This document shows, in pieces, positions 1,000-54,202 of a stretch of 54,202 nt of DNA; position 1 is the first letter of the stretch, and every line of letters starts with the position of its first letter. A program made the translations under genes and the position numbers. The notes beneath the pieces are model-generated. The model saw nothing but the letters and a program-made list of their open reading frames with translations, did not search any database and was not told where the DNA came from. Source of the DNA: Clostridia bacterium (GTDB lineage: Bacteria; Bacillota; Clostridia; Oscillospirales; CAG-272). Location: assembly GCA_017395715.1 (NCBI GenBank), contig JAFQNZ010000211.1, positions 1 to 54,202 on the forward strand, in the 5' to 3' direction.

Positions 1000-1013
1000 T
1001 GAACGCTCCTTTC

Positions 1014-29152: not shown

Positions 29153-29171
29153 CTGAACTCCCTCCCTTCTC

Positions 29172-31461: not shown

Positions 31462-31470
31462 TTTCGACCT

Positions 31471-39592: not shown

Positions 39593-39798
39593 TTGGATTT
39601 CTCCCTTTCTTTTCGTTTTTCAATGGCTTTCTGTACGCAGGGGTCTTTGTCGGTAACGATTCGACCGCTTGCACACTTCACACATTGGATTCGCCATTTG
39701 TTGCCGCTCTGTCCCCACCGACGTTCAAAGTGACCGTATCCGGCGGGGACATAAGCTCCGCATTTGTAGCAATGGCCGGGGTACATATTTCTGGCCAC
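39589..39798 (-). CDS. Zinc-finger small protein
   Basis: CYKCG...CVKCASG in 69 aa. Confidence 0.55.
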   Translation of the reverse strand: MARNMYPGHCYKCGAYVPAGYGHFERRWGQSGNKWRIQCVKCASGRIVTDKDPCVQKAIEKRKEREKSK

Positions 39799-39810
39799 GA
39801 ACCTTCCTCC

Positions 39811-41316
39811 TTACGTCAGATGGACGCATCCATCATTCTGTTTGTTCGGTTCAATGTCCAAGCCCCACACGAACCACTCGTTCGCCTTGCGAATCGGGAA
39901 ACCACGCATTGCGATCTCGTTGTAGAACGTAGTAGAACCAATAGGGTGATACTTGTTCTCTGCCTTACAGCACCACGCACGGTAGGCCGCATAGAGAGAA
40001 CCGCGAACGACCTTCTTGTCTTCACCAAGGACACAGCACTCATCAAGGAAGTTGCCGATACGGTCGTGCATCTTGCGATAGTTCGCAGTAGCAGAGCGAA
40101 CGCATTCGGGAGGATTCAGGCCGTTCTTCATGTAATCCTCACAGCCATCGAACAGCCACTTCAAGATCGTGGGGCGGTTCTCAGGACGAGCGAAGATCTC
40201 TTTCAGGTCTTTATCCTGCGTCTTCTCATCGAAGTGCTGATTGAACTCGATGACCCAAATACGATTCGAGGAGAACACGGTATCATCGGTCACGGCGGGA
40301 AGATGGTTGGTATTGAGCCAAAGGGTGAATTGCGGTACGAAGGAGAACGAGCTTTCAAACAGGTCACGGGTGACGAGGGTGTCACGACCCGTCATGGTCT
40401 TCATGCTCGCCGCATCCAAGCGTACATCCTTCGAGGACTCAGCCATAGTCACAAGGCGTGTACCCACGAGCTTTGCAAGGGTGGGCTGAGGGGCGTTGAA
40501 GTCGGTAGACCTGCCCGTTTTGCTCTCACAGATGAGATCGGTGGGAGCGGAATCAGCATAGTCTTCGCCGAGCACCGTACAGATGGTGGAGAACAGCGTA
40601 CCCTTGCCGTTTCGGGTCTTCGAGCCGTAGGCGATGAACATACACTCCTCACGGTTGACACCGAGGATGGAGTAGCCCAAAGCCCTTTGCAGGAATGCGG
40701 CCTTTTCCTTATCACCGCTCATGATCTGGTCGATGTAGGTGTACCACCGCTCACAGGTCGGCGTGAGGAAATCAGGCAGGGCGCAGGTGGTCTTCTTGGT
40801 GACATTGAAAGGGATAATGTCTTCTACGATCTCGCCCGTTTTCAGGTCGTAGGCATGGCGGGTGGTGTTGAGCAGGTAGGGATTGGAGTTCATATCCTTC
40901 AAGGGCATACGCACCATGGTTTTCAGAACTTCCATGATATTGCGCATAGAGGTGAACTTTCGGATGGACTTGATGTACTTGTGGTAGTCATCAATGAACT
41001 CGTCTTCTTCCTTCTCATCCTTGGCCTTGATCTCTTTGCAGTAGAGCACGAGCAGGTTCAGCAGGGTTTGCAGACGGTCGGAGATTGCACCGTTCTCACC
41101 CTGTTTCCTCCAACAGCCATCCCAAATGTACCAGTAGCCGTTCTGAGGACAGAAGCGAATGGAATCCTTATACACATCGCTCATCAGGGTAGCCATACCA
41201 ATGTCATCCCAAGTGTAGACATTGCTCTGATGGGGATGGACGCTCATCAGCGTTTCCATGATCTCGGACATACCCTCATCTTCGATGATCTGTCCGTTCG
41301 CCATTTCGTAGTTCAT
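39811..41316 (-). CDS. D5/P4-type primase-associated SF3 helicase (NTPase)
   Basis: Walker A GSKTRNGKGT, plus a D5_N-like region and a C-terminal winged-helix-like end. 501 aa. Confidence 0.75.
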   Translation of the reverse strand: MNYEMANGQIIEDEGMSEIMETLMSVHPHQSNVYTWDDIGMATLMSDVYKDSIRFCPQNGYWYIWDGCWRKQGENGAISDRLQTLLNLLVLYCKEIKAKDEKEEDEFIDDYHKYIKSIRKFTSMRNIMEVLKTMVRMPLKDMNSNPYLLNTTRHAYDLKTGEIVEDIIPFNVTKKTTCALPDFLTPTCERWYTYIDQIMSGDKEKAAFLQRALGYSILGVNREECMFIAYGSKTRNGKGTLFSTICTVLGEDYADSAPTDLICESKTGRSTDFNAPQPTLAKLVGTRLVTMAESSKDVRLDAASMKTMTGRDTLVTRDLFESSFSFVPQFTLWLNTNHLPAVTDDTVFSSNRIWVIEFNQHFDEKTQDKDLKEIFARPENRPTILKWLFDGCEDYMKNGLNPPECVRSATANYRKMHDRIGNFLDECCVLGEDKKVVRGSLYAAYRAWCCKAENKYHPIGSTTFYNEIAMRGFPIRKANEWFVWGLDIEPNKQNDGCVHLT

Positions 41317-41753
41317 GAGCGTTCCTCCTTAAATTTGTGAGACTCCGCGATGAACCAAGTCGGGGTGAGACCGTACTTCGCCATGAACAAGGCTTTTGCA
41401 AGGGTCTCAATCAACTGATGTTGTGCGATCTCGAAGACCGCTTCTTCGCGGGATTTTTCATTAAAGGTGATGAATTTGAAGTGGAGCAGTTCGTGAATCA
41501 GCACTTGCTCCATGGGCTGTTTGAGAATCATATCAGGCGGCAGGTCTTCGGCTCGGCGAATACTGATGAGACCGCACATATTGACAAACTGCACTTCGGA
41601 TTCACCTGCACACTCAGGAAGGTTCATGTCTTCCTTCGGGCAGATACGAGCGGCAATTTGCCAATCGGAAAGACCGAGAAGACGTTTCCATTCTTCAAGG
41701 CATTCCAACAGCTCTTTTTCGCTGTCGAAGACAAGTTTGGGAGCATGGCTCAT
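41313..41753 (-). CDS. HExxH zinc-metallopeptidase-like protein
   Basis: HELLH motif. ATG at 41753 is preceded by AGGTGAAGAA. Confidence 0.4.
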   Translation of the reverse strand: MSHAPKLVFDSEKELLECLEEWKRLLGLSDWQIAARICPKEDMNLPECAGESEVQFVNMCGLISIRRAEDLPPDMILKQPMEQVLIHELLHFKFITFNEKSREEAVFEIAQHQLIETLAKALFMAKYGLTPTWFIAESHKFKEERS

Positions 41754-41923
41754 TTCTTCACCTGCTTCCTTACGCTGTCGGCGAGAACCGCCATAGCGCA
41801 CTTCTGAGCTTCTTCGTTCCACCATCCACACCGTTCCTGAATACAGTCAAAGGTGCCGGGGCATTCTTTATCGGGAGGGATGTTGAAGCTCATCGGGCAG
41901 AGAATCTTTTCCTGATCGGACAT
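41750..41923 (-). CDS. Cys-rich mini-protein (57 aa, below the ORF-track cutoff)
   Basis: ATG at 41923 is preceded by AAAGGAGG. Translation is MSDQEKILCPMSFNIPPDKECPGTFDCIQERCGWWNEEAQKC... It overlaps the upstream ORF by 56 nt and the downstream one by ATGA. Confidence 0.45.
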   Translation of the reverse strand: MSDQEKILCPMSFNIPPDKECPGTFDCIQERCGWWNEEAQKCAMAVLADSVRKQVKK

Positions 41924-42119
41924 GGTTCTTTTCCTCCTTTAAGGCGTTGATTGCTTTTCTCAGAGAGCGGATGCACCCGCTTCTCCAATTCGTTGAGTAA
42001 GGCATGATCTGAGTAATCATGTACTCCAAGTTCCAAATATCGTGGTCGTACTCATCCTTGTGCATGAGCAGTTCGATTGCTCGCTCATTCATGCGGATTC
42101 GGTACTTTTGTTCGTCCAT
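41868..42119 (-). CDS. Hypothetical protein (83 aa), first gene after promoter cassette B
   Basis: ATG at 42119 is preceded by GGAGGTG. Confidence 0.6.
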   Translation of the reverse strand: MDEQKYRIRMNERAIELLMHKDEYDHDIWNLEYMITQIMPYSTNWRSGCIRSLRKAINALKEEKNHVRSGKDSLPDELQHPSR

Positions 42120-42144
42120 GAGTCACCTCCGATTTCGCTTGGAG

Positions 42145-42232
42145 CTCAGATATTCCTGAGTTCTCTTAAAGAATATCAGAAATATCTGAGCTTGTCAAGC
42201 CTTTCGGGAAACTTTTCTCAGAAAAATCTGAG
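42145..42232 (-). promoter_or_regulatory. Promoter-operator cassette B (an inverted copy of 33264-33350)
   Basis: Minus strand reads TTGACA (42198-42193), 17 bp, TATTCT (42175-42170). Palindromes: CTCAGAAAAATCTGAG at 42217-42232, tcagaaatatctgag at 42176-42190, ctcagatattcctgag at 42145-42160. Confidence 0.6.
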
Positions 42233-42233
42233 A

Positions 42234-42422
42234 TTACCAATCAACGCCCATGTCATCAAGGCAGGTGAGAATCACGTTCCAATGGGGTGCGTTGCCCGGA
42301 CGGGTAGCACCACCCGCTTTCATGATCTCGGAGCGGTTGATGTTGCATCCCTTGCTTCTCATCCTGTGCCACAGGTCATCCATGGTGTACCCGTTAGCCC
42401 TCAGAGCAGTTCTCAGGTTCAT
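42234..42422 (-). CDS. Small putative DNA-binding protein (62 aa)
   Basis: ATG at 42422 is preceded by AAGGAGGTG. Confidence 0.5.
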   Translation of the reverse strand: MNLRTALRANGYTMDDLWHRMRSKGCNINRSEIMKAGGATRPGNAPHWNVILTCLDDMGVDW

Positions 42423-42663
42423 TTTTCTCACCTCCTTGCATGGCGTAGCGGATGAAGTAGTAAAGCTCACGGCGGCACTTATCGCACAGATGGAACTTGC
42501 TCGTGGGAGAGTAGAACCGCTTATCGGTGTAACCCGATTTGCTGTGCTCGTTCTTTTCACGAACTTCCTTCCATTCCATAACGTCAAGCCGACACGGGTG
42601 AGGTTCTTCGATCTTCACACCGCAACGGTCACAAACGATGGTCTTAACAATCACGGTTATCAC
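42394..42663 (-). CDS. Zinc-ribbon protein (89 aa)
   Basis: CDRCG ... CDKC. Confidence 0.55.
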   Translation of the reverse strand: MITVIVKTIVCDRCGVKIEEPHPCRLDVMEWKEVREKNEHSKSGYTDKRFYSPTSKFHLCDKCRRELYYFIRYAMQGGEKNEPENCSEG

Positions 42664-42878
42664 TCCTTCTTGATTTGTTCCCCAAGCACGAGGAGTTGTT
42701 CACGGATGCAGGTAATGCGGCGAAGCATAGATTCGCGGGAATCTTCACGGCAGAGCATATATCCCGCCCACGGGTGCTTATCTCCCGTTTTCTTTTGGCA
42801 GTCCTCGTATCGAGCCAAGCTCTCACCGAGGGATTTCACCATGGTTTCGACCATGCGTAAGCGTTCGGACTTTTCCAT
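42660..42878 (-). CDS. Hypothetical protein (72 aa)
   Basis: ORF in the coupled array. Confidence 0.55.
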   Translation of the reverse strand: MEKSERLRMVETMVKSLGESLARYEDCQKKTGDKHPWAGYMLCREDSRESMLRRITCIREQLLVLGEQIKKE

Positions 42879-42882
42879 ACGC

Positions 42883-43074
42883 TCACCTCACGATCACGTT
42901 GTCGAGCAGGTTCTTCATGGTCAGAACCGTCCAGTAAGTGATAATCCATCCCCACATATTCGCGCCATTGAGAAGACCGTTGAGTACGACTCCCGCAATG
43001 ACGGCGAGGGCAAGGACAAGCAACCGCTTTGTGGCATCGAGGTAGAATTTCCAATCAGGATTCACGCTGTTCAC
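42883..43074 (-). CDS. Small membrane protein
   Basis: Contains two hydrophobic segments. The start is GTG at 43074 or GTG at 43065. Confidence 0.5.
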   Translation of the reverse strand: MNSVNPDWKFYLDATKRLLVLALAVIAGVVLNGLLNGANMWGWIITYWTVLTMKNLLDNVIVR

Positions 43075-43214
43075 CTCCGATTCTGATAGTTCGGAGGGAA
43101 ACCCTGACCCTCACGCTTGCCCTGATGGTAGCGAGACCATGCGCGAATCTCGAAAAGCTCTACGATTGCGCCACCCAGGAACATGAAACCAAGTGCTTGA
43201 AAAACAGTCATCAT
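43071..43214 (-). CDS. Small membrane peptide (47 aa, below the ORF-track cutoff)
   Basis: ATG at 43214 is preceded by AAGGAGGAG. Translation begins MMTVFQALGFMFLGGAIVELFEIRAW... Confidence 0.45.
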   Translation of the reverse strand: MMTVFQALGFMFLGGAIVELFEIRAWSRYHQGKREGQGFPPNYQNRR

Positions 43215-43223
43215 AACTCCTCC

Positions 43224-43640
43224 TTAGAGAGTATCGTCTTCGCAAGAGATCACTCTGCGAATGCCCGAATTGGTAATCATTCGACTACACATTTCACAGG
43301 GCGTGGGATTCTTCATGCGTTCGCCGTTCTCGAATCCCGCGAGGAACAGGATTGCTCCGCACATTTCTTCACGGCTTGCATTGATAATGGCGTTGGCTTC
43401 CGCATGGACGGCTTTACACTTTTCGTACTGCTGACCATGGGGAATGTTGTGGGCTTCACGGTAGCACTCGTTCAGGTCACAGCAGTTCACCAAACCTCGT
43501 GCCGTACCGTTGTAGCCCGTGGAGACGATGGTGTCGTTCTTCACGATCACCGCACCGTATTGTCTGCGAATACAGGTGCTTCGGGCGGCTACTGCCGCCG
43601 CAATGTCAAGGTAATACTTGACTTTGGAAGGTCTTTCCAT
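43224..43640 (-). CDS. dCMP deaminase (cytidine/deoxycytidylate deaminase family)
   Basis: Zinc-binding motifs CKAVHAEANAI (HAE) and PCEMC (PCxxC). Confidence 0.8.
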   Translation of the reverse strand: MERPSKVKYYLDIAAAVAARSTCIRRQYGAVIVKNDTIVSTGYNGTARGLVNCCDLNECYREAHNIPHGQQYEKCKAVHAEANAIINASREEMCGAILFLAGFENGERMKNPTPCEMCSRMITNSGIRRVISCEDDTL

Positions 43641-43644
43641 ATCG

Positions 43645-44433
43645 TCACCTCTTGTAGCGGGTTACGCTGTTGACGATGGTCTGCAATTCGTTACGAGGAA
43701 GCTCCGGATCACAGGCCACGGTGTTGCAGTAGATCAACTCATCGTATATCTGCGCTTTGGAATACCCCTGATTGTGGAGCATACCTGCGAGAGAAGTCAG
43801 GCAGATATTGCGGCATCCGTTGGGAATGCGAGGATATACGGGTCTGAGCTTGATGCGACTTCCTACGGGCTTTTCCCAAATGGGGGTGTACACTCGATTA
43901 CCCATGGGCTTCGAGTTCTCATCACGCTTCACTTCGGGGAAATACTTCTCTACCACATAATCAATCGCTTCCTGATTCTCACGCAGGGTGTGGTATACGA
44001 TTGCATCGCCCGTCATAATGAAGTAGCGGGATGAGCGGTATATCTCCACGCCGTTCAGGTTGTTCCTACCCTTGAAGGGGAGCGTACCTCGGAGCAGGAT
44101 ATGGAAACCTCTACCGCTTCGGCTTCGCTCGGTGTAGCTCTGACACTTGCCGAGAATGTCGGCGGCAACTGCGGTGATGAAGCCATCATCGTCATAGCCT
44201 GTATCAATGTCGATACCCACCAAATCGTTATCGTTGAATACGAAGCCGATGTTGTCATAGTGTCCATCCGCTACCGCCTGAACAGCGGTAGCGAACGGAG
44301 ACCATGTATCGGGGTCGGTCGAGGAAGCCGCTTCTCGCTCAAAGGACTTCATCGGAACTTTGCTGTCTGCATGGACACATACCCATTGGTCAAGCTCTTT
44401 CAGGGCTTGGGGAATGTGTTCATACTGACTCAT
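43645..44433 (-). CDS. Primase-polymerase (AEP / bifunctional prim-pol) with a PriCT-like C-terminus
   Basis: VGIDIDTGYDDDG (DxD) and SRSGRGFHILL (sGxGxH). ATG at 44433 forms a TGATG overlap. Confidence 0.7.
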   Translation of the reverse strand: MSQYEHIPQALKELDQWVCVHADSKVPMKSFEREAASSTDPDTWSPFATAVQAVADGHYDNIGFVFNDNDLVGIDIDTGYDDDGFITAVAADILGKCQSYTERSRSGRGFHILLRGTLPFKGRNNLNGVEIYRSSRYFIMTGDAIVYHTLRENQEAIDYVVEKYFPEVKRDENSKPMGNRVYTPIWEKPVGSRIKLRPVYPRIPNGCRNICLTSLAGMLHNQGYSKAQIYDELIYCNTVACDPELPRNELQTIVNSVTRYKR

Positions 44434-44744
44434 CAGATGAGACCCCTCCGCTTTGCGACCTTCTTTTCGAGGTCGTTCACCATGTTCCAAACATGGTTCT
44501 GCTCCATGCGATGTTCCTTGGCGATCTTGGTAATCGCTTCGGGCAGGGGCGCGGTATCAGAGTAGAGAGCCACGAACACTTCACGCTCCTCATCGGAGTA
44601 GGTGTTCAGAGCGGTGTGACAGGCATTCCAGTTCTTCTTATCAGCTTCGGTCTTGAAGCGGGGCTGTTCGGAAGAAGCATTGATACGGCTCTTGGCGTAG
44701 AAACGCATGGCGTGTTTCACATACTCGGCGTAATGAGGTCTCAT
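44433..44744 (-). CDS. Putative late transcription regulator (sigma-70 region-4-like HTH)
   Basis: EEREVFVALYSD...ITKIAKEHRMEQNHVWNMVNDLEKKVAKRRGLI resembles region 4 of small phage sigma or RinA/ArpU-type activators. Confidence 0.4.
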   Translation of the reverse strand: MRPHYAEYVKHAMRFYAKSRINASSEQPRFKTEADKKNWNACHTALNTYSDEEREVFVALYSDTAPLPEAITKIAKEHRMEQNHVWNMVNDLEKKVAKRRGLI

Positions 44745-44989
44745 TCGGCATCCTCCTTCTTGACCTTGGTCTTCTTGGCGGGTACTTCCTCCAGCGGGAA
44801 GAAGTATTTGTCATCGACACAGCGGAACATGGCGTTGCACAGGGCGGCAACCTGCTCATCCTTCACGACCTTACCGCTCTTGATGATCTGTTCCGCGCTG
44901 GACAGGGGCATGGTGTTCTGAACGAAATGCTTGCCCGTCCGCATGACGAAAGTGACCTTGTTATCCTTAGCTTTGATCTTCATATCCAT
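44741..44989 (-). CDS. Hypothetical protein (82 aa)
   Basis: ORF in the coupled array. Confidence 0.55.
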   Translation of the reverse strand: MDMKIKAKDNKVTFVMRTGKHFVQNTMPLSSAEQIIKSGKVVKDEQVAALCNAMFRCVDDKYFFPLEEVPAKKTKVKKEDAE

Positions 44990-45002
44990 GGTGGTTTCCT
45001 CC

Positions 45003-46901
45003 TTATTTCTTGCAATCGTGCTTCACACGATCACGCTCCTCGGCGCGTTTGGCGTTATTGAAGCGGTCGAGAGTACCTACGAGATAGCCCGTGATACGGC
45101 GAATGCGCTCGAACTTACCTTCTTCCTCGGTGCGTCCGCAACGGGGGCAGGTATCACCGATGATACCGTTATAGCCGCACACAGGGTCACGGTCTACGGG
45201 ATGGTTGATCGAACCATAGCCAATACCGCATTCCTTCATGTAGCGGATGACGGATTCAAAGGCTTCGAGGTTCTTGCTCGCATCGCCGTCCATTTCCACA
45301 TAGCTGATGTGACCTGCGTTGGTGAACGCATGATACGGGGCTTCGAGCCTGATCTTGTCGTAGATGCTGATGGGATAGTAGACGGGGATGTGGAAGCTGT
45401 TGGTGTAATAATCACGGTCGGTAACGCCCTCGATCTCACCGTAACGCTTCTTATCCATCCGCACGAATCGACCCGAAAGGCTTTCAGCAGGGGTCGCAAG
45501 GCAGGTGACGTTCATAGAAAGCTCCTTGGACTTGCGATCACAGAAGGTGCGGATATAGGAGACGATGAACTGACCAAGCTCCTGCGCTTCCTCGCTCTCG
45601 CCGTGATGCTTACCCGTAAGGGATTTCAGCGTTTCGGCAAGGCCGATGAAGCCGATGGACAGCGTACCGTGTTTCAGCACTTCGCCGATCTCATCTTCCG
45701 AACCAAGGGTGTCAGAATCAATCCACACACCCTCGCCCATCAGGAAAGGGAAGTTACGAACCACCCTGCGGCTCTGCACCTCGAAGCGGTCAAGCAACTG
45801 CTTCATGACCTTGTTCAGCATATCGGTGAGCAGGTCGAAGAACTTGTCCACATCACCCTTGGCTACGATAGCAAGGCGGGGCAGGTTGATGGAAGTGAAG
45901 CTCAGATTGCCACGACCATTGCTGATCTCACGGGAGGGGTCGTAAACATTGCCCAAAACCCTCGTGCGACAACCCATGTAGGCCACCTGAGTTTCAGGAC
46001 GGTCGGGGTCGTAGTATTGCAGGTTGAACGGTGCATCCACGAAGGAGAAGTTCGGGAACAGCCGCTTGGAACTCACGCGCATGGCCAGACGGAACAGGTC
46101 GTAACTGGGGTCTTCGGGGTTGTAGTTCACACCTTCCTTGACTCGGAAAATTTGAATCGGGAAGATGGGCGTTTCACCATTGCCGAGACCCGCTTCCGTT
46201 GCGAGAAGCAACTGCTCAATCACGAGCCGTCCTTCCCAGCTGGTGTCCATGCCGTAATTGATGGAGGAGAACGGCACTTGCGCACCTGCGCGGGAGTGCA
46301 TGGTGTTCAGGTTGTGAATGAAGCCCTCCATGGCCTGATAGGTGTCACGCTTGGTGGCTTTCATCGCCATCTTCTCAGCCCAACCATCCACCCACTCACA
46401 GTCAAGATCAACGATGATCTCTCGGTAGTGTTTCAGATGCTTTTCGTAGGTCAGGCGCACACCCTTCGCCATGGCGTAGTCAAAGTTCACGATGCTCTGA
46501 CCGCCGTGCTGATCGTTCTGATTGCTCTGCACCGCAATCGCCGCGAGAGCCGCATACGAGCCGATGGACTTGGGTTCACGAAGATGACCATGACCCGTAT
46601 TGAAGCCATCCGCAAACAGCGTCAGCAGGTCGATCTGGGTACAGGTGGTAGTCCAACCGTAGAAGTCAAGATCGTGAATGTGAATCCATCCTTCACGGTG
46701 AAGGGCGGCGATTTCAGGGTCGATCATCGTATCAAGGTAGTATTCCTTGGCGGTGTTCGCGCCCTGCTGGAGCATCGCGCCCATGGGGGTATCGCCGTTG
46801 ATATTGGCGTTGTCCCGCTTCAAATCGCTGTCGCGGGATGAGAGGGCGGTAATGTTGTCGAAGATCGTTTTCACCTTACCGCCGAACTCTGCAAGGTTCA
46901 T
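45003..46901 (-). CDS. nrdD: Anaerobic ribonucleoside-triphosphate reductase
   Basis: C-terminal CPRCG zinc site and glycyl-radical motif RIRRITGYLVG. ATG at 46901 is preceded by AAAGGAGG. Confidence 0.9.
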   Translation of the reverse strand: MNLAEFGGKVKTIFDNITALSSRDSDLKRDNANINGDTPMGAMLQQGANTAKEYYLDTMIDPEIAALHREGWIHIHDLDFYGWTTTCTQIDLLTLFADGFNTGHGHLREPKSIGSYAALAAIAVQSNQNDQHGGQSIVNFDYAMAKGVRLTYEKHLKHYREIIVDLDCEWVDGWAEKMAMKATKRDTYQAMEGFIHNLNTMHSRAGAQVPFSSINYGMDTSWEGRLVIEQLLLATEAGLGNGETPIFPIQIFRVKEGVNYNPEDPSYDLFRLAMRVSSKRLFPNFSFVDAPFNLQYYDPDRPETQVAYMGCRTRVLGNVYDPSREISNGRGNLSFTSINLPRLAIVAKGDVDKFFDLLTDMLNKVMKQLLDRFEVQSRRVVRNFPFLMGEGVWIDSDTLGSEDEIGEVLKHGTLSIGFIGLAETLKSLTGKHHGESEEAQELGQFIVSYIRTFCDRKSKELSMNVTCLATPAESLSGRFVRMDKKRYGEIEGVTDRDYYTNSFHIPVYYPISIYDKIRLEAPYHAFTNAGHISYVEMDGDASKNLEAFESVIRYMKECGIGYGSINHPVDRDPVCGYNGIIGDTCPRCGRTEEEGKFERIRRITGYLVGTLDRFNNAKRAEERDRVKHDCKK

Positions 46902-47521
46902 GCCTTTTCCTCCTTTCTCATGAGTTTGAACCACTCATTAAAGAAATCATATCGGGTCTGAATCGAAGCACCCTGAATCGGAATGTTCTGTTCAGCACAC
47001 CACTTGTTGAACTTCTCCCACTTGCCGCACCGATAGATTTCAGGGCAACCGCCGCGATACACACAATTCGGCACGAGCACATCTGCGATCTCAGGTTCGA
47101 TCTCGTGAAGTGCTTCTTTGAAATCCTCAGCGTAACCACGGGTTTCGGGGGAAGCCTGTTCACACAGGCGTTTGCGCCATGTGTCGATCAAATGCTGTAC
47201 GTTGGCATCGCCGACAAAGGTCTGAGGTTCATCCTGGGGGAGCTTTTCGCGGGGAATACCCGTTCTGTCGCTACGCTGAGTACGAACGAATTTCTCCCAC
47301 TTGTGACGAACCCAATGAACAGTAATCCAATGCGGCATATCGCGCCAACGCCACTTGATCTGAATATCCCTGATGGGACTATGCTCCGCGATAAGGATGG
47401 AGCGTTTGAACTTTCGGGAGGGTTCTTTGCCAAGCTCGTCCTTACCTACGGTGGAACGGCAATCGTTGGCTACTTCCTCCCAATCACCCTTGCGTTTCAG
47501 AATTTCGGTCAGAAAGCCCAT
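46898..47521 (-). CDS. Divergent ThyX-like (flavin-dependent thymidylate synthase fold) protein
   Basis: EHSP, then 21 residues, then VRHKWEKFVRTQRSDR. Canonical ThyX reads H-x-SP, then 21 residues, then VRHR-x7-SQR. The spacing is preserved, but the signature reads RHK and TQR. Confidence 0.45.
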   Translation of the reverse strand: MGFLTEILKRKGDWEEVANDCRSTVGKDELGKEPSRKFKRSILIAEHSPIRDIQIKWRWRDMPHWITVHWVRHKWEKFVRTQRSDRTGIPREKLPQDEPQTFVGDANVQHLIDTWRKRLCEQASPETRGYAEDFKEALHEIEPEIADVLVPNCVYRGGCPEIYRCGKWEKFNKWCAEQNIPIQGASIQTRYDFFNEWFKLMRKEEKA

Positions 47522-47524
47522 GGC

Positions 47525-48115
47525 TCATACTCCTTTCACATGGGAAGCGATCATATCGGCATGATGCGTCCACAGGACATTCGGATAGGTATGAACGGCA
47601 CGAGTGTAATCGCTCCATTCCTCACGGTCGGTGAAAGCACCCATGTGGTAACGGATGCAAGCGACTTCCTCCTCGGTCAACTTCATCAGGGAAGCGAGCT
47701 TCATGACGGATTTATCACCATGACCTTTGAGAAGGGTGTTCTTGTTGTACTCGTAATGAGTACCCGTATCGAGGAACAGTTCAGCATCGCCATTGCGAAT
47801 CGTCTGACCCGGCTCTACGGTGTAGGCATCCATCTTGCACAGATCGTGGAACATACCAACAATGAGGGGGCTTTCGGGGCGTTCCCACACCAAGCCGTTC
47901 GCCTTGGTCAGTTCCCAAAGGGTCTGCGCCACCTCGAAGGAGTGGTCGAAAAGGCCACCCTCATAAGAGCCGTGATACTTGGTGGAAGCAGGAGCGGTGA
48001 AGAAACCGTGCTCCGAAAGGTAATTGGTGATCTCGTTCGGGATGAACGGAGACATACGCTTGGTGAACTGGAATACGCGACTCGCGTAGTTCACCTGACA
48101 GGTCGTTTCTCCCAT
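47525..48115 (-). CDS. HD-domain phosphohydrolase
   Basis: KYHG...GGLFDHS and VGMFHDLCK (H...HD...D pattern). Confidence 0.7.
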   Translation of the reverse strand: MGETTCQVNYASRVFQFTKRMSPFIPNEITNYLSEHGFFTAPASTKYHGSYEGGLFDHSFEVAQTLWELTKANGLVWERPESPLIVGMFHDLCKMDAYTVEPGQTIRNGDAELFLDTGTHYEYNKNTLLKGHGDKSVMKLASLMKLTEEEVACIRYHMGAFTDREEWSDYTRAVHTYPNVLWTHHADMIASHVKGV

Positions 48116-48468
48116 TATGATTGTCTCCTTTCGTATTCAGGACGATGGATACTCTGCTCGGCGGTGAACTTCTGCGGGTATCGCTTTTCGAGCTTCTTGA
48201 TGTTGCCCTGAGCCACATCTTCCAAAGTGATACCCAAGCCCGTAGCGGTCTGAGCAACGTACCACAGCACGTCTCCAAGCTCATCAATGAGCCTGTTGGG
48301 GTCGAACTCGTGCTCCTGAAACTCCACCTTTTTCAGAATGTCAATGCACTCTCCGGCTTCACCACACATACCGTAGCAACCGTTCTGCATCTTCTGCCAA
48401 GGGGTGAGTTTCGGATTGCTCGTCCGTTCAGCGAGCTTTTGATACTCATTTAACTGCACTACCCGCAT
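48115..48468 (-). CDS. MazG-like nucleotide pyrophosphohydrolase
   Basis: LNEYQKLAERT...GMCGEAGE...ELGDVLWYV is the EXXE...EXXD MazG signature. Confidence 0.75.
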   Translation of the reverse strand: MRVVQLNEYQKLAERTSNPKLTPWQKMQNGCYGMCGEAGECIDILKKVEFQEHEFDPNRLIDELGDVLWYVAQTATGLGITLEDVAQGNIKKLEKRYPQKFTAEQSIHRPEYERRQS

Positions 48469-48742
48469 CCTCCATTTCGAGAACCGTCATGATAGCGTAG
48501 TTGGCAAGGTCGAGCAGGGTATCTTTCAGGGATTCATCCGACACCTTCTGCGTATCGAGCTTGCGGGAAAGGGTCTTGAAGCGATTGAACTTATCACCAA
48601 GGCGAATGCGGGGCATCGCCATACCCTCCTCCACGAAGGTCTGATGGAAACTATCACCGTAATCGTGATTCTTCTTCGCGTAGAGGTTGTTCAGAGCCAA
48701 GCAAATCTGCTTATGGCGTTCAACCTTGTTGTTACAGATCAT
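48446..48742 (-). CDS. DUF1599-like (MazG-related all-alpha) protein
   Basis: YAKKNHDYGDSF ... IRLGDKFNRFKTL. ATG at 48742 is preceded by AAAGGAG. Confidence 0.5.
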   Translation of the reverse strand: MICNNKVERHKQICLALNNLYAKKNHDYGDSFHQTFVEEGMAMPRIRLGDKFNRFKTLSRKLDTQKVSDESLKDTLLDLANYAIMTVLEMEDAGSAVK

Positions 48743-48808
48743 GAAATTCACTCCTTTTTGCAAGCCGGGGGAACATCTTGCGATGCTCCCCCAGTCGGTA
48801 GGTGTTGC

Positions 48809-49279
48809 TTATTTCAGCAGGGAATCAAGGTCGAGACCACCAGCGGGAGCAGATGCGCTCGGCGCGGGAGTGGGCTTCGCGGCCGGGGCAGGGATTTCAT
48901 CGAAGCCATCGGCCGGGGACTTATCGCCGAGGTTGGCGAAGGTGACGGTCTTGGTGGGGTCTTTGCGGGAGGGCATCTTGGTATGCACCACCTCAGCACG
49001 GATGTAGTGGTCGATGATGTCGGTGTGGTCAATGTCCTCCACGGTGAAGTCATTGAGCGCGGTCTTGGCGAAGTAACTGAAAGCGTTCAGAGCCTTTTCG
49101 TTCGGTTCGCTGTTGTTATCCATCAGGGAGAAGTTCTCGGTGTGCTTCATGCCCTGAGCGTTCACCAGCATGACGGAGAGCTTACCGAAGGTCTCGTCAT
49201 ACTTCACATCGTAGATACGGAACACATACGTTCCTTCGGGAATCAGCGTAAAACCGCTGGTCATGGGAATCCTTGCCAT
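48809..49279 (-). CDS. Putative ssDNA-binding protein (DUF669-like)
   Basis: 156 aa, located beside the exonuclease/annealase genes. It has a Pro/Ala-rich linker and an acidic tail (GGLDLDSLLK). Confidence 0.4.
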   Translation of the reverse strand: MARIPMTSGFTLIPEGTYVFRIYDVKYDETFGKLSVMLVNAQGMKHTENFSLMDNNSEPNEKALNAFSYFAKTALNDFTVEDIDHTDIIDHYIRAEVVHTKMPSRKDPTKTVTFANLGDKSPADGFDEIPAPAAKPTPAPSASAPAGGLDLDSLLK

Positions 49280-49293
49280 TGTCGTTTTCCTCC

Positions 49294-49617
49294 TTATTCT
49301 TCGTAAATGATGGTCAGTCCGTAAGCCTTCGCCGCTTCATGCTCGATGCGGCAACCACGGGCATTTTCCCAACCCTTGCAGAAGTAAGCCGCATGACACA
49401 GGCTCATGTTTTCGAGAGACTTGGCGAGGAAACAGAGCGGAATCTGCACCACACCGCGCTTCTCCATGGCTTCCTTGCTGTACCACTCATCAGTAAACAG
49501 CGTGTTCACGATCTCATAGCCCTGAGCTTCGAGAGCGTGAATCGCACGTTCACGGGTAGCGATGATCTCCTGTTCGGACTTACCAGCCATCGGCTGAGAG
49601 AGCATAGCTTTCATCAT
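49294..49617 (-). CDS. DUF4406-like protein (nucleoside 2-deoxyribosyltransferase-like fold)
   Basis: MLSQPMAGKSEQEI ... CKGWENARGCRIEHEAAKAYGL. Confidence 0.4.
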   Translation of the reverse strand: MMKAMLSQPMAGKSEQEIIATRERAIHALEAQGYEIVNTLFTDEWYSKEAMEKRGVVQIPLCFLAKSLENMSLCHAAYFCKGWENARGCRIEHEAAKAYGLTIIYEE

Positions 49618-49629: not shown

Positions 49630-50652
49630 TTACTTCACAGTCATACGGAACTGCGTAGACTTTTTCTGGTACTTGTCGAGCACACCATCGGCTTTCATGG
49701 CATCTTTGTCGATGGTCGTGGTCTCGGAACGAGCAATCGTCCAAGTGTAGGTCTTGCCCTTGACCTCCACCTTCTTGTCACCATCACGGAACTGCGAAAC
49801 AGCGTGTTCCTTGATGATTTCGCCGATCTCCTTCAACCGCTTTTCCTTATCGGCAAGAGCGGCGGTAGCCTTGTCCACCTCGGCTTTGAGGGTTTCAGCT
49901 TCGGCAATCAGCGCGTCCATGTCGGTATCGGGGGTCAGGTTGTTGGTGCGCAGAGCTTTCAGGATTTCAGCATCCTTCTTCTCATCGAACTCAGGGCTGA
50001 CACCCGTGGCAACGTGCGCATCCCACCATGCCTGAGCCTGAGCGACCATTTCGGCGAAGTTCGGGTAACGCTGAGAAACCTTGAACTCCCTCGTGATCGT
50101 GTTCTTGGCGTTGGGGACGAACGCATCGGGATTCTCGTAATCCTTCGCACTCAGGAAGGAAGCGACCATGATTACGTCATCCACACCGAGCAGGTAGGCA
50201 TAGAGCGCGGCTTGCAGGGCATAATATTCAGGAATGTCATCTGCCCAATCCTCAGACCTCTTGGTGGTCTTGAACTCGATAACTGTATCGGGCTTACCCT
50301 CACCATCCACGAGCAGGGAGTCCCACATACCGCCGAAGACGGGGATATTGTGGAAGAAATCGCCGAAGGTCTTGTTGAAGTAACCCTCGCCGTACACATC
50401 GGTCGGGGTACGCAGGTTGGTCATGACGTAAGCCTTGCGCATATAGGCAATCTGCTTCGGTTCGATGGTCTTACCTGCGATGGTGTAGATGGTGTCCTCG
50501 AAAGGCTTCTGATAGGTCTTGGTGATCTCACACCACATTTCAAAGGGCGTAGACCACGGATTCAGACCGAGGATGGTAGCGAAGCGGGTTGCCGTGATCT
50601 TCTTCGGACGCTTGGGAGGGTCTACGATGATCGACTTATCCTGCCAGATCAT
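49630..50652 (-). CDS. YqaJ-like recombination exonuclease (PD-(D/E)xK) with a coiled-coil C-terminal extension
   Basis: ITATRFATILGLNPWSTPFEMW ... DTVIEFKTTK ... YYALQAALYAYL. Confidence 0.75.
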   Translation of the reverse strand: MIWQDKSIIVDPPKRPKKITATRFATILGLNPWSTPFEMWCEITKTYQKPFEDTIYTIAGKTIEPKQIAYMRKAYVMTNLRTPTDVYGEGYFNKTFGDFFHNIPVFGGMWDSLLVDGEGKPDTVIEFKTTKRSEDWADDIPEYYALQAALYAYLLGVDDVIMVASFLSAKDYENPDAFVPNAKNTITREFKVSQRYPNFAEMVAQAQAWWDAHVATGVSPEFDEKKDAEILKALRTNNLTPDTDMDALIAEAETLKAEVDKATAALADKEKRLKEIGEIIKEHAVSQFRDGDKKVEVKGKTYTWTIARSETTTIDKDAMKADGVLDKYQKKSTQFRMTVK

Positions 50653-53600
50653 GCGTTGTCACCTCCGAGCATTTCAGACACCTTGGTCAGAATCGCTTCA
50701 CAATCGGTCTTGCTGACTACGGTGAAGCCCTGCGTCTGAATGGCGATCTGAGCAATCCATTCCTCCTTAGAGGAATCCTTGGCGCGAAGCTGAACCAGCG
50801 CGTTCTTCAACTGCTTGATCTGGAGTTCGCTCGCGTTCCCTTCGGGCTTGGTAAGCTCCTGCTTCACCACTTCACGCTGTTCAGGAGTGGGCGGGGCTTT
50901 GGGAGCCGGGGCAGGTGCGGTGGTCGGGCGGTTTTCCATTTCATCAGCTTCCACAATGTCAAGGGCTTGCTGATACAGGTAACGGCGCATATAGGTCTCG
51001 GTCGCACCCAACGCCTGAACAGGGGTCACAGCGGAATTGCCGAGCCATTCACGCATCGGCGCAGTAAACACGATGGTGGTCTGCGGGTCGGTCATGTCCA
51101 GAATGGTCATGGTCGCATCGTCCTTGGTGAAGTTCACCATGGGGATAAGGTTCTGTTCGTGGAACAGCGGCATTGCGATGGGAACAATGTCATCCAACTC
51201 GAAATACTTGGATTTGAGCTGAATATTCTTACCCGACTTGGTGATACCAGCGGATGCGAACTTTTCGCGGACAAGCGCAAGACGCTGATAGATGTTCAAG
51301 CCCTTGTCGGCACTCTTGGTAGTAGCCATCTTCTTTTTCCTTTCCTTCTTCTCAGGCTTGATACCCAAGAAGTCATTGATTCGCTTCTTTGCCATTTCGA
51401 TGTAGAAGGTCTTATCCACATCATCAATGGTGAGGTGATTGTCGTTATCAATGATGCAATGCTCAGGAAGCATTTCGATCTTCGCCGTAGAATCATCTTC
51501 GGCTTTGACCTTAAACAATTTACCGTATCGAGTATCAGCCGTTGCATAAACGCGATTAACCTTCTGAACGGGATGTTGTTCACCATTGACAAGATGATAG
51601 GCTTCACGATATTTCTGACCAGCCTTTGCGATCAACTGGAAATCGAATATATCGTTGCAACCATTGATTGTTTCTTCCACAGGTGTACCGTTCACGAAAT
51701 ACTCGATTAGAGCTTTCTTAACGATAACCATGTTGTTGTTGATCGCCCATGCACCCTTTACAGAGATACCATAGTTCAAGTAGCTACCCACCGTTTTGAC
51801 TTCACCATCGGTTTTAATCATAAGGAGGTTGTTCACGTCCTTAATCCAAACCTTATGCACATCATCGGTTTCAAGCTCGAACTTTGTCTCAGCTTCCCAT
51901 TCGCTTGCGATTCGATCAACAATCGGGAGTTCTTCTTTGGATATGGAGTACATCAGACCATCGGTATTCAGATTGAGTAAGCGAATGGTCTTACAAGCCC
52001 CCAACAGTCTCATCGCAAGAACTGTGAGGAATAGCTGACCCGATATTCGTAAAGAACGTGTAGGGAGAGGGTCATAGAGATCGTTATACTGATTTTCCTG
52101 CGCTCCTGAGACCGTGTTCAATGGTAGTTTCAAATCCTTGGCGGTCTGCTTATCACCAACGTGCTTCGCCTGAATACGATCTCGCTTGATAGCGTAAAAC
52201 AATTCGGGGTCAGGTACGTTGCGCGAGAGATAGTTATATATCTCAATCAGCGAAGGATACAGACTTGATACGTCACGATTTTGAATAACACGATCATCAG
52301 TAGATTCTTCAAAGTAAGTCACGAGACTTCCATGAACACCACCCCATGCGTATTTGCAGGGCATACCACCAATGTCGATAGTGAAGAAGGTCTTGAACAG
52401 TTTTTCGTCAGGTATCGACTTATCGTGAATAGTGTCGAAGAAATCTAAGATGGGTTGAGGGATTACTGAAATATCGAGCGCAGGAGGATATACATAATCC
52501 CTACCGTCCGTCCATTCCTTCCTTTCTGCACGAAGCATCATAGCGGTCAGTTTCGCGTTCGTAGCCGCCAATGCTTTTACATCCGGAATACCCGCTCGTC
52601 TACCAAGATTGATCTTTGTTTTCAGATAGTCCATGCGAACTTCGACCAATCGTTCGGTAGCATCAACATCGTGCTTACAGTAATGAATGGTTTCCGCGAG
52701 TTCACCCGGCGTGAGAGGTCTATCAAGATCGAAAGAAACTGTACTTTCCTCAACCGACATACCAAGATGACCTTCTATGGCTTTCAGAGACAAAGCCTTG
52801 TATACGTCATCCTTTATGTCAATGTTGTTGAAGGAGAAGTAATTTCCGCGAATCAGAGGATGTTCCCATCCTTGACCTCCACCGATGATGTAATCATTGA
52901 GTTCTTTGACCTCCTCAATGCTCGCGTCATTACATATCGCTTTTACGATATACTGGTCATAATGTTTGGAGTTGAAACCGCAGTATACACCCTCGCTGTC
53001 GATGAACTCTTTGAGAAGTTCCGAGTCATTATGAATAACGGTGAACTGCTTGGTTTCTATATCCTTGAAGATGACCAACCAATCGTAAGCGAAGACTTCG
53101 CAGTCATAGACAAAGAGTTTGATTGTTTCACCTTCCTTTCGGGGAACAGGGTCTTTCAGCGGTCTTTTATACGCCCACGATTGGTAGTCATCGAAATCCA
53201 TGGACTTCGAGTAGGCAATCGCGTTGTTCGTCCACCGCTGTAAACGCTTGGTGATCTGGGGTGCGGAGGGTTTGTTGTAGATCATTACATAAGGCCAACA
53301 CTCGCAATTCTGAATAGCCTTGATTCTCTGCATATCCTGCTCATGAGTGGTATCGAAATTGGTGAGACAGAACACTTTTGCGTTCCTCCAATTCCATTTA
53401 CCTTTGATACGCTTACAGGCTTCTACATAAAGCCGCAGACCGCGCTCTACGGGAACGAGAGCTTCCATGCTATCCATGGCAAAATGCGGTGTTTTCAGCT
53501 TCATTCGGGCGAGCAATTCGGCTTTCTCAGGAGTGATGAGCCTTGCGTCAAACCCCTGATTGAAGTCGATTGTTGCACCTGAGTCTGCAAGCTGTTTCAG

Positions 53601-54146
53601 CAGAGAAAGTGCGTCCTTACAGGCGAGAATGTTCGGGTCGGAAAGACAGATATGCCCTTGTCCGTTCCAGAATTGAGATAAATCGGCTACCTTATGCGCA
53701 CATCGACCTTCTTTGGGAGCAACGTGGCAAAATCCACATCCCCTCGGACACCCTCTCGTGAGAAAACCATAAGCGGTTTGCTTTTTGAGTGGTAAGCCGT
53801 AACCTGTGTATTCAGGGTACAGACTGTAATCAGGGTAGATACTCTCCACTTCGGGAGGAAGTGGCGGGTCAACATCCTTGTGATAAACCTCCTTTTCACC
53901 TTCGAGCCATATCGCATATCCCGTACCACCCTTTATAACCTTCCGCGCATTTGTAGGTTCAGGTACATCGGGTGAATACACATCGCTGAACACCTTTGAC
54001 ATATACACAATGTCATACTCAGGGGCATTTTCATCGTGCCACTCAACGGTGTCACCTTGGGCTTTATGGAAAGCAGAGAGCTTCATCAGGCAGAGGTTTG
54101 GGAAATGATGACCGTCCACATCAATCAAGCCGATGCGCCGATTCAT
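50649..54146 (-). CDS. Single ORF fusing a radical-SAM-like domain, a family-B DNA polymerase and an ERF-type single-strand annealing protein
   Basis: rSAM-like part: GCPRGCGFCHV (CxxxCxxC, 53727-53750) after a flavodoxin-like N-terminus. PolB part: exo motifs YDCEVF, GFNSKHYD, YCKHDVDAT and pol motifs DVSSLYPS, KLPLNTVSG, LNTDG. ERF part: from MATTKS (ATG 51329) with ALGATETYMRRYLY. No stop codon separates the parts. ATG at 54146 is preceded by GGAGGT. Confidence 0.7.
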   Translation of the reverse strand: MNRRIGLIDVDGHHFPNLCLMKLSAFHKAQGDTVEWHDENAPEYDIVYMSKVFSDVYSPDVPEPTNARKVIKGGTGYAIWLEGEKEVYHKDVDPPLPPEVESIYPDYSLYPEYTGYGLPLKKQTAYGFLTRGCPRGCGFCHVAPKEGRCAHKVADLSQFWNGQGHICLSDPNILACKDALSLLKQLADSGATIDFNQGFDARLITPEKAELLARMKLKTPHFAMDSMEALVPVERGLRLYVEACKRIKGKWNWRNAKVFCLTNFDTTHEQDMQRIKAIQNCECWPYVMIYNKPSAPQITKRLQRWTNNAIAYSKSMDFDDYQSWAYKRPLKDPVPRKEGETIKLFVYDCEVFAYDWLVIFKDIETKQFTVIHNDSELLKEFIDSEGVYCGFNSKHYDQYIVKAICNDASIEEVKELNDYIIGGGQGWEHPLIRGNYFSFNNIDIKDDVYKALSLKAIEGHLGMSVEESTVSFDLDRPLTPGELAETIHYCKHDVDATERLVEVRMDYLKTKINLGRRAGIPDVKALAATNAKLTAMMLRAERKEWTDGRDYVYPPALDISVIPQPILDFFDTIHDKSIPDEKLFKTFFTIDIGGMPCKYAWGGVHGSLVTYFEESTDDRVIQNRDVSSLYPSLIEIYNYLSRNVPDPELFYAIKRDRIQAKHVGDKQTAKDLKLPLNTVSGAQENQYNDLYDPLPTRSLRISGQLFLTVLAMRLLGACKTIRLLNLNTDGLMYSISKEELPIVDRIASEWEAETKFELETDDVHKVWIKDVNNLLMIKTDGEVKTVGSYLNYGISVKGAWAINNNMVIVKKALIEYFVNGTPVEETINGCNDIFDFQLIAKAGQKYREAYHLVNGEQHPVQKVNRVYATADTRYGKLFKVKAEDDSTAKIEMLPEHCIIDNDNHLTIDDVDKTFYIEMAKKRINDFLGIKPEKKERKKKMATTKSADKGLNIYQRLALVREKFASAGITKSGKNIQLKSKYFELDDIVPIAMPLFHEQNLIPMVNFTKDDATMTILDMTDPQTTIVFTAPMREWLGNSAVTPVQALGATETYMRRYLYQQALDIVEADEMENRPTTAPAPAPKAPPTPEQREVVKQELTKPEGNASELQIKQLKNALVQLRAKDSSKEEWIAQIAIQTQGFTVVSKTDCEAILTKVSEMLGGDNA

Positions 54147-54202
54147 TACGACCTCCATTTCATTCAGCCGCAAAGGTAATCGACTACCTCATCGTACCGC
54201 TC
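54062..54202. repeat. Terminal overlap, identical to 1-141
   Basis: Base-by-base identity with the first 141 nt. Confidence 0.95.

Follow-up and report, generated by a model that had tools for sequence, protein, structure and literature searches.

A stop-free reading frame joins a radical-SAM domain, a family-B DNA polymerase and an ERF-type annealing protein in a phage of gut Clostridia

The 4A and 4B proteins of phage T7 are nested in-frame products of a replication gene. Among the radical S-adenosylmethionine (SAM) enzymes, MgmA is cobalamin-dependent, and AprD4 and MtaB have similar N-terminal domains without cobalamin. In phage M6, gp53 is a radical-SAM isomerase that resembles spore photoproduct lyase (SPL), on which it was modelled; it takes part in thymidine hypermodification and was described as the first radical-SAM enzyme shown to help install a DNA modification (Lee et al. 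2021, PMC8989533). Polyvalent multidomain proteins of phages and conjugative elements have also been described (Iyer et al. 2017, PMC5512222), and radical SAM is not mentioned in the text of that study. In this study we analysed contig JAFQNZ010000211.1 of the Clostridia bacterium assembly GCA_017395715.1, a stretch of 54,202 nucleotides that we call the window. The contig is a circularly assembled phage of roughly 54 kb, and its relatives are phages and prophages of gut Clostridia. One open reading frame (ORF) on its minus strand joins a radical-SAM domain, a family-B DNA polymerase (PolB) and an ERF-type single-strand annealing protein. The preliminary description of this DNA knew of no radical-SAM/polymerase fusion, and in the literature we likewise found none, nor any paper on a PolB-ERF fusion. 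What is new here is the domain architecture, which is built from known kinds of parts.

Translation of the minus strand from 50649 to 54146 gave 1165 codons without an internal stop, as had been described before, and the motifs quoted in the preliminary description (the cysteine cluster and the exonuclease, polymerase and ERF motifs) were each found in place. We favour, with a probability of about 0.6, the reading that this ORF is a stop-less tandem of three once separate, adjacent early genes, in which the joining of the radical-SAM domain is secondary and does not depend on the polymerase. The parts of the ORF and the gene that follows it are:

50649-54146, minus strand: the whole ORF of 1165 residues (radical-SAM domain, linker, PolB, linker, ERF), with its stop codon at 50649-50651; the same length and frame are found in the related loci L171, L007, L005 and L006.
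53163-54146, minus strand: radical-SAM domain, residues 1-328, with an N-terminal Rossmann/B12-binding-like subdomain (about residues 1-125) followed by the radical-SAM core.
53121-53162, minus strand: linker 1, residues 329-342, PLKDPVPRKEGETI, the former intergenic and start region of polB and a mosaic breakpoint.
51372-53120, minus strand: family-B DNA polymerase, residues 343-925, with Exo I-III and motifs A, B and C.
51330-51371, minus strand: linker 2, residues 926-939, rich in Lys, Glu and Arg, with a weak Shine-Dalgarno (SD)-like AAGGAAAGGA at 51338-51347.
50652-51329, minus strand: ERF-type single-strand annealing protein, residues 940-1165, consisting of the Pfam core, then a Pro/Ala-rich spacer and a C-terminal tail domain.
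49630-50652, minus strand: gene of a YqaJ-type exonuclease (PF09588, 2.2e-9), the start of which overlaps the ORF stop by 4 nucleotides.

In the manner of two-component recombination modules of the Erf/YqaJ (Red-like) type, such as P22 Erf and lambda Exo-Beta, the exonuclease gene comes after an ERF-family annealing domain and is translationally coupled to it; unlike in these modules, the ERF is in most members the C-terminal domain of a replicative polymerase. The locus resembles T7 gene 4A/4B in having a single frame with an internal SD and start codon, from which long and short co-functional products would be expected, but its frame holds three enzymes that are unrelated and that relatives encode separately, and internal initiation is suggested here by conservation. 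With the polyvalent proteins (PMC5512222) it has in common that a mobile element encodes several enzymatic domains of unrelated kinds in a single polypeptide, and some homologues of the radical-SAM domain are chimeric with the YodL and LPD26 domains of that class, whereas the window ORF sits in a replication module and shows no sign of being packaged or injected.

The start of the ORF is likely ATG 54146, because MNRRIGLIDVDG or close variants of it form the N-terminus of all full-length and stand-alone relatives and because a GGAGG lies 5 nucleotides upstream. A longer listing of the ORF, with 1174 residues, starts at TTG 54173; the internal ATG 51329, which had been given as codon 949 of that listing, is present and is codon 940 of the ATG-started protein.

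54152-54156, minus strand: GGAGG ribosome-binding site, 5 nucleotides upstream of ATG 54146 and within the 141-bp terminal repeat.

The boundary between the radical-SAM domain and PolB could be followed at the nucleotide level by comparison with relatives in which the two are separate. The stand-alone radical-SAM protein P0140 ends with ...AYKR, corresponding to residue 328, and the window protein goes on with PLKDPVPRKEGET-I-KLFVYDCEVF; the PolB N-terminus of most relatives reads M(R/K)L(I/F)VYD. In the window the junction DNA is CGAAAGGAAGGTGAAACA-ATC-AAA, and two elements of it deserve mention:

53128-53139, minus strand: retained SD-like AAAGGAAGGTGA, pairing with the 16S tail at -17.9 kcal/mol; the same sequence is found in L009, which has no radical-SAM domain.
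53121-53123, minus strand: ATC (Ile342), at the position of the polB start codon (ATG, TTG or GTG) of relatives.

The SD-like element lies 4 nucleotides upstream of the position at which relatives start polB. Whether fused or unfused, relatives start there with ATG, TTG or GTG; L005 has AAAGGAGG plus TTG, and ATC is found in the window, in L007 and L171 and also in L009. In L008 a separate radical-SAM gene of 348 residues ends with TGA and is followed, after 3 nucleotides, by the ATG of PolB. In L009 the PolB is 96% identical to that of the window, no radical-SAM gene is present, and a methylase and a Mom-like gene lie upstream. The radical-SAM gene would thus have joined polB in one lineage through in-frame loss of its stop codon and the spacer. 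Between Met316 and Leu357 the window has no in-frame ATG, GTG or TTG, and Leu357 already lies beyond Exo I. Unless AUC initiates, most and perhaps all of the polymerase in this sub-lineage is therefore probably produced as a tri-domain protein of 131 kDa. In L009 (2381-2560) the PolB-ERF gene has the same SD and ATC with no canonical start nearby, and the start chosen by the gene caller is a GTG that precedes the ATC by 17 codons and falls within the last part of the methylase gene. Such an arrangement hints at AUC initiation or at termination-reinitiation coupling.

The two joins in the ORF differ in how widely they occur. Among the 120 best protein clusters, 117 have PolB-ERF without radical SAM, mostly as two-domain proteins of 823-850 residues and in one case as a cluster of 4707 members, and just 3 have the radical-SAM-PolB join. 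At 80 PolB loci from IMG/VR the ERF was fused in 54, encoded separately in 23 and absent from the available stretch in 3; within ±5 kb of PolB, no radical-SAM gene was found in 79 of the 80, the one exception having it elsewhere in the locus. We concluded that the PolB-ERF fusion is the common state of this phage family, that the radical-SAM-PolB join is rare and secondary, and that the radical-SAM gene is a mobile accessory gene.

A search for the same fusion in relatives, which the preliminary description had proposed, found it. The same 3498-nucleotide frame is present in four contigs from four other samples (L171 with 99% amino acid identity, L007 with 80%, L005 and L006 with 76%), and protein clusters of exactly 1165 residues were found at 99%, 80% and 76% identity. 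We compared the window with L005, L007 and L171; each frame has 3498 nucleotides and a single terminal stop. Between the window and L005 the synonymous sites are saturated in the radical-SAM and PolB parts, with a proportion of synonymous differences (pS) of 0.73-0.77. The corresponding proportion of nonsynonymous differences (pN) was 0.06 in the radical-SAM domain, 0.24 in PolB, 0.06 in the ERF core and 0.32 in the 14 codons of linker 1. Saturated pS together with low pN means that the join survived long divergence under purifying selection. All three domains are under purifying selection, and the fusion is real and long-lived.

The same comparisons showed that the frame is a mosaic. Between the window and L007 the nucleotide identity is 98-100% for residues 1-340 and 901-1165 and 45-70% for residues 345-900. 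Against L009 it is about 72-100% per 60 nucleotides between the starts of PolB and ERF, with most segments at 85% or more, and drops thereafter. Two of the three exchange points thus lie at former boundaries, the PolB start and the ERF start, and the third lies within PolB at about residue 900. Exchange at old gene boundaries is what would be expected if the modules still act as separate genes in the population. The polymerase segment 51372-53120 behaves as an exchangeable cassette, the window PolB matching that of L009 and not that of L007.

The second boundary, between PolB and ERF, shows signs of an internal start in the family. The candidate is:

51327-51329, minus strand: internal in-frame ATG, Met940, the putative start of a free ERF.

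Among 120 relatives the Met-Ala at the ERF start is invariant across the linker variants, while the length and the sequence of the linker vary. Upstream of it, AAGGAGGA occurs in 13 of 18 unique sequences, in some of which it is read as Lys-Gly-Gly and in others, the codon phase being shifted, as Arg-Arg. Where it reads Arg-Arg, no more than 0.6% of synonymous recodings match its pairing with the 16S tail, which argues for selection on the nucleotide motif, i.e. for an internal ribosome-binding site. It is therefore probable that the phages of this family also make ERF on its own, from the internal Met. In the window itself a purine-rich AAGGAAAGGAAAAAG is followed by AAG and then by the ATG, and in its own sub-clade the SD motif has decayed to AAGGAAAGGA. 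The internal start that had been proposed for the window is thus borne out at the level of the family, while the motif of the window itself is weak.

From these observations a mechanism can be outlined. The PolB-ERF core is a family-B polymerase of the proofreading type, tethered to an ERF annealing domain. In a first step the YqaJ exonuclease would resect ends and expose 3' single strands; in a second the ERF, both free and tethered to the polymerase, would anneal the 3' tails to complementary single-stranded DNA (ssDNA); and in a third the attached PolB would extend the annealed end, amounting to recombination-dependent replication. One frame would give nested products, including free ERF from the internal Met behind the embedded SD, and the radical-SAM domain would use SAM and its Fe-S cluster on the DNA of the element or on a nucleotide-related substrate. 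The domain identities, the recurrence of the fusion, the selection on every domain and the genomic contexts are observed; the anneal-and-extend mechanism, the internal initiation and the role in DNA modification are what we infer.

The identity of each domain was examined separately. Because Pfam was weak for the first two (the radical-SAM match lay below its cut-off and no PolB model matched), these were tested by structure. Residues 4-323 match phrog_9298 of PHROGs, 'radical SAM domain protein', at 2e-82, and the cluster of cysteines is conserved:

53727-53750, minus strand: CxxxCxxC motif CPRGCGFC (C133, C137 and C140), the presumed [4Fe-4S] ligands, invariant in an alignment of 60 sequences.

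A precomputed match to the Pfam model PF04055 exists in a minority of close homologues, and a search of NCBIfam returned nothing significant (only QueE, at E = 0.048). An AlphaFold2 model of the domain, made from 60 homologues, reached a predicted local distance difference test score (pLDDT) of 91.8 and contains the N-terminal Rossmann-type fold, with MgmA as its top match. In a Foldseek search of the Protein Data Bank (PDB) the best matches were MgmA, MtaB and AprD4 (E 2e-6 to 3e-5, template-modelling score about 0.5), and the top matches were all radical-SAM enzymes, SuiB, LIAS and BlsE among them; a search of BFVD gave generic radical-SAM or uncharacterised viral proteins only. The radical-SAM-like N-terminus of the preliminary description is supported by these results, and the assignment of the domain as a radical-SAM enzyme with an N-terminal Rossmann/B12-like domain holds. 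In common with MgmA (9ccb), AprD4 (6fd2) and MtaB (9a6d), the domain has its CxxxCxxC about 130 residues in, after an alpha/beta domain of about 125 residues. It differs from them in a length of only about 330 residues, an identity of about 14%, the lack of a Pfam or NCBIfam family above cut-off and of a sequence match in the PDB, and a context of mobile elements and DNA methylases instead of antibiotic, tRNA or methyl-coenzyme M reductase pathways. M6 gp53 is likewise a phage-encoded radical-SAM protein, with its Fe-S motif from residue 125 as compared with 133 here, but the top 50 structural matches of the window domain do not include SPL. The PADLOC models of anti-phage defence proteins matched neither the fusion protein nor any of four neighbouring proteins.

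For the polymerase, residues 336-935 match phrog_1252 'DNA polymerase' at 1.6e-139, and the motifs are as follows:

residues 347-352: Exo I, YDCEVF, canonical DxE.
residues 390-397: Exo II, GFNSKHYD, canonical Nx2-3[FY]D.
residues 489-497: Exo III, YCKHDVDAT, canonical Yx3D.
residues 625-632: motif A, DVSSLYPS, canonical DxxSLYPS.
residues 673-681: motif B, KLPLNTVSG, an approximate fit to Kx3NSxYG.
residues 726-730 (51957-51971, minus strand): motif C, LNTDG, with NTDG in place of DTDS.

In 40 relatives the key residues of Exo I-III are invariant or nearly so and the NTDG of motif C is invariant, so that the replacement of the usual DTD, which had been pointed out before, is a family trait and not a lesion. 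The Pfam models PF00136 and PF03175 did not match the window protein, PF03175 being seen in relatives and 'faint' wherever it was graded, and phmmer and hmmsearch found nothing significant among PDB sequences. The AlphaFold2 model had a pLDDT of 75, being good to about residue 445 and poor over the last 150. Foldseek nevertheless placed it with archaeal PolB, Pol alpha and the African swine fever virus polymerase (E 2e-12, probability 1.0, with 180 matches at or below 1e-3), in agreement with the compact family-B polymerase of the preliminary description. Against the phages of INPHARED, megablast of the ORF gave no match, and tblastn gave PolB-only matches of 29-36% identity over residues 304-928 (about 590-625 residues aligned) to the 'DNA polymerase B-like' proteins of Paenibacillus, Staphylococcus and Enterococcus siphoviruses. 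Among the records listed, query coverage was at most about 54% and none reached 80%, and therefore no ERF or radical-SAM fusion was seen there. The compact PolB of these Firmicutes siphoviruses belongs to the same PHROG as that of the window. The other replication proteins in the annotated parts of the window are a PriCT-type primase, a D5-type primase-helicase and a DEAD helicase.

The C-terminal part, described earlier as ERF-like, matches Pfam PF04404 with 33.1 bits against a cut-off of 25 (6.8e-8, residues 952-1072, 50931-51293), and residues 933-1156 match phrog_155 'Erf-like ssDNA annealing protein' at 1.9e-27.

residues 1045-1064: ERF motif ALGATETYMRRYLYQQALDI, as quoted in the preliminary description.

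The domain is predicted to be an ssDNA annealing protein, and the adjoining YqaJ exonuclease gene gives contextual support. This gene is syntenic in all relatives, and its product is likely the partner nuclease of ERF.

Outside the PolB loci the radical-SAM family is large. Clustering at 90% identity gives over 8000 clusters, almost all of 300-350 residues, and at 50% identity there are 2700 representatives; we found no description of the family in the literature. A scan of genome contigs with the single radical-SAM sequence gave no confirmed relatives. With an alignment as query, at least 579 stretches were found to carry the gene, the majority from gut Clostridia (Oscillospiraceae, Lachnospiraceae, Ruminococcus and others). 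Of these, 80 loci were kept for the counts given here, with methylase neighbours counted over 72. An adjoining PolB or ERF was absent in 79 of the 80. The neighbours, as read by eye, were a VirB4-like ATPase, an NlpC/P60 peptidase and topoisomerase III; methylases, judged by sequence motifs, neighboured the gene in 19 of 72 loci, forming an N6/N4-type cluster of 13 and a C5-type cluster of 6. By Pfam, chimeric representatives combine radical-SAM fragments with a type IV secretion system coupling protein, a topoisomerase or YodL/LPD26 domains, which supports a conjugative context. Homologues of 50-57% identity (L016-L089) were common in apparent conjugative elements of Lachnospiraceae and Oscillospiraceae, and some of these loci were interrupted by group II intron reverse transcriptases.

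In phages the family is also found apart from the polymerase. P0121, the closest stand-alone relative with 93% identity, comes from a small, unrelated phage that encodes a rolling-circle Rep. INPHARED holds the domain in 17 records only, annotated just as 'radical SAM domain protein' or 'hypothetical', and the named hosts are all anaerobes. The carriers are Clostridium phage phiCT453B (gp19, 48% identity), Bacteroides and Phocaeicola phages, an Oscillospiraceae phage, Methanomassiliicoccales viruses and a Marinitoga virus. In the Oscillospiraceae phage NatCom_21982 (L173, 3776-8698) a ParB-methylase, the radical-SAM gene, a 605-residue DNA methylase and an amidoligase follow each other, and this region looks like a DNA-modification island; the 605-residue gene had been considered as a PolB, which was ruled out as it is a DNA methyltransferase. 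In L005, L006, L007, L008 and L171 an N6/N4 methylase lies directly upstream of the radical-SAM gene. The window has at this place phrog_6247 ('DNA topoisomerase'; 103-1083, minus strand) and an HNH endonuclease (1932-2450, minus strand), so the slot upstream of the radical-SAM gene is variable. The most likely function of the radical-SAM protein is modification of the element's own DNA, or else a role in establishment or anti-restriction. Judged from its neighbours, the protein could plausibly act in DNA modification, perhaps while tethered to the replisome.

Other enzymes have also been joined to PolB or ERF. A complete C5 cytosine DNA methylase is in frame with PolB-ERF (about 1180 residues) in three IMG/VR contigs from different samples, that of L125 matching PF00145 at 5.8e-68 over profile positions 2-324 of 324:

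L125, 3960-5001: fused C5 methylase.
L126, 200-1244: fused C5 methylase.
L138, 2777-3815: fused C5 methylase.

The C-terminal half of a C5 methylase is in frame in L119-L124 and P0031, and in P0018 (1079 residues) a PAPS-reductase-like domain (phrog_424, 8.9e-30) is in frame with the N-terminus of PolB-ERF. The tails at L156 (2-362) and L150 (1-115) resemble the PAPS-reductase-like domain by eye, that of L156 having no Pfam match. In L135-140 and L154, PolB is preceded by open frames of 96-103 residues; these resemble non-coding read-through and were not counted as fused domains. In L010 the radical-SAM-PolB join arose independently, with a different linker and the Met retained, and PolB is frameshifted further on. 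P0250 (569 residues) has the radical-SAM domain fused straight to ERF with no polymerase between. P0168 (497 residues) has a radical-SAM domain of 76% identity and only the palm with motif C of PolB (aligned residues 615-775), and is probably a deletion derivative. In most fused frames an SD and a TTG or ATG are kept at the PolB start. The join in the window looks like one of several stop-codon losses at this boundary.

The recurrence of such joins bears on the principal alternative, a selected tethering at the replisome, in which a DNA-modifying radical-SAM enzyme gains from its attachment to the polymerase because nascent DNA is modified, the fusion being adaptive; the C5 methylase or the PAPS-reductase-like domain of sister phages would benefit in the same way. 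At least three different upstream partners (radical SAM, C5 methylase and PAPS-reductase-like) are in frame with the same PolB N-terminus, the radical-SAM joins being those of the window, L005-7 and L171 and, independently, L010; the lineage of the window no longer has a canonical polB start, its join has outlasted the saturation of synonymous sites with every domain kept under constraint, and the radical-SAM-ERF fusion P0250 exists. Yet the great majority of radical-SAM homologues and of PolB-ERF genes are neither fused nor adjacent, and with an SD and a usable TTG or ATG inside most fused frames PolB can still be made alone. Moreover, in-frame stop loss would be expected by chance in a sizeable fraction of lineages, at about 1/3 for the frame times about 0.5 for 14 codons without a stop, and several fused clusters are singletons or carry truncated methylases (L119-L124). 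We therefore hold selected tethering to be unlikely, though it keeps an appreciable share of the probability.

The preliminary description had gone further and taken the fusion to mean radical chemistry coupled to DNA synthesis. This was not upheld: stand-alone members of the family number in the thousands, PolB is adjacent in 1 of the 80 genome loci, and radical SAM is a separate gene in L008 and missing from L009. As the overwhelming majority of homologues are unfused, coupling is not required; it is no necessity of this architecture and stands as a minority hypothesis. The neutral explanation is that packed, translationally coupled genes lose a stop, that the frames agree in one case of three, and that PolB is still initiated internally. 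Between this and an adaptive join we are undecided; the loss of the start and the long persistence make us lean slightly towards a protein that is functional as a fusion.

Several observations weigh against the tandem of once separate genes, or against the functions assigned to its parts. That the window lineage has lost the canonical polB start and has long kept the join is as compatible with a selected fusion as with a tolerated one. For the radical-SAM domain, PF04055 scored 17.9 bits, below the cut-off of 29.5, phmmer and hmmsearch gave no significant match among PDB sequences, and no profile provides a substrate. Polymerase activity is assumed only, given the NTD in place of DTD and the poorly modelled C-terminal 150 residues, and no second DNA polymerase was found in the annotated parts of the window, only part of which was searched. 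The internal motif AAGGAAAGGA of the window is weak (-6.8 kcal/mol, with 35% of synonymous recodings as good), and free ERF may be a minor product in this phage.

A bolder combination would make the radical-SAM protein a new kind of DNA-modifying radical enzyme, e.g. a cobalamin-type C-methylase, and have modification enzymes repeatedly welded to the polymerase-annealase, so that new DNA is modified at the fork before host nucleases act. We regard this as doubtful and place it below simple tethering. The recurrent fusions of modification enzymes to the polymerase nevertheless make replisome-tethered modification of phage DNA directly testable. No Pfam or NCBIfam model covers the radical-SAM family, which occurs only on mobile elements of anaerobes and in the company of DNA methylases; it is therefore a strong candidate for new DNA-modification or anti-restriction chemistry; gp19 of Clostridium phage phiCT453B, with its 48% identity, offers a cultured handle on it. 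PolB-ERF itself appears to be a widespread, undescribed 'anneal-and-extend' enzyme of gut Clostridia phages, with thousands of metagenomic sequences, and provides a handle on the coupling of recombination and replication in small phages without a clamp. Should the joins be neutral stop losses, the locus would still be a clean case of nested genes and of mosaic exchange at former boundaries.

An artefact of assembly or sequencing, in which an indel or a chimeric join made a false long ORF, is highly improbable. The ORF start does lie within the terminal overlap of the circularised contig, and the independent join L010 comes from a metagenome-assembled genome in which PolB is frameshifted further on; against this, the same frame recurs in L171, L007, L005 and L006 from different runs and centres, the junction has diverged extensively in nucleotide sequence without an indel, and the terminal repeat is exact and covers the first 85 nucleotides of the ORF only. 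This direct repeat of 141 bp at the contig termini indicates a circularly closed assembly. The overlap that had been reported for the contig junction is therefore real, while the ORF does not cross it: just its first 85 nucleotides and its ribosome-binding site lie inside the repeat. Non-overlapping ORFs of the minus strand cover 50.6 of 54.2 kb, nearly all genes being on that strand. An exact look-up of the 1165-residue protein in the contig index returned no record.

The idea that the radical-SAM domain is an NrdG-like activase of the phage NrdD, fused to couple deoxynucleoside triphosphate supply to synthesis, can likewise be set aside as barely credible: NrdD is encoded a few genes downstream in L005, L007 and the window, but a separate canonical NrdG is present, L009 has NrdD without the radical-SAM gene, no NrdD was found in the examined stretches around the homologues of conjugative elements or of the P0121 phage, and the fold resembles radical-SAM enzymes with a Rossmann N-domain and not the small activases, with no Fer4_12 match in the N-domain. 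The canonical gene elsewhere in the window, by which the candidate was ruled out, is:

29310-29804, minus strand: NrdG, anaerobic ribonucleotide reductase activase (Fer4_12, 1e-38).

By eye, the ORFs on either side of it look like the large terminase (29815-31506) and the portal (27704-29215); its partner NrdD (45003-46934) is encoded about 15 kb away. NrdD belongs to a module on the minus strand (38714-49617) that also encodes DUF4406, DUF1599 ('nucleotide modification associated domain 1'), MazG, an HD-type phosphohydrolase (phrog_28876), a short ThyX-like protein, dCMP deaminase and FolD. This module may serve to alter the pyrimidine pool or to make a modified base, in either case without involvement of the radical-SAM protein.

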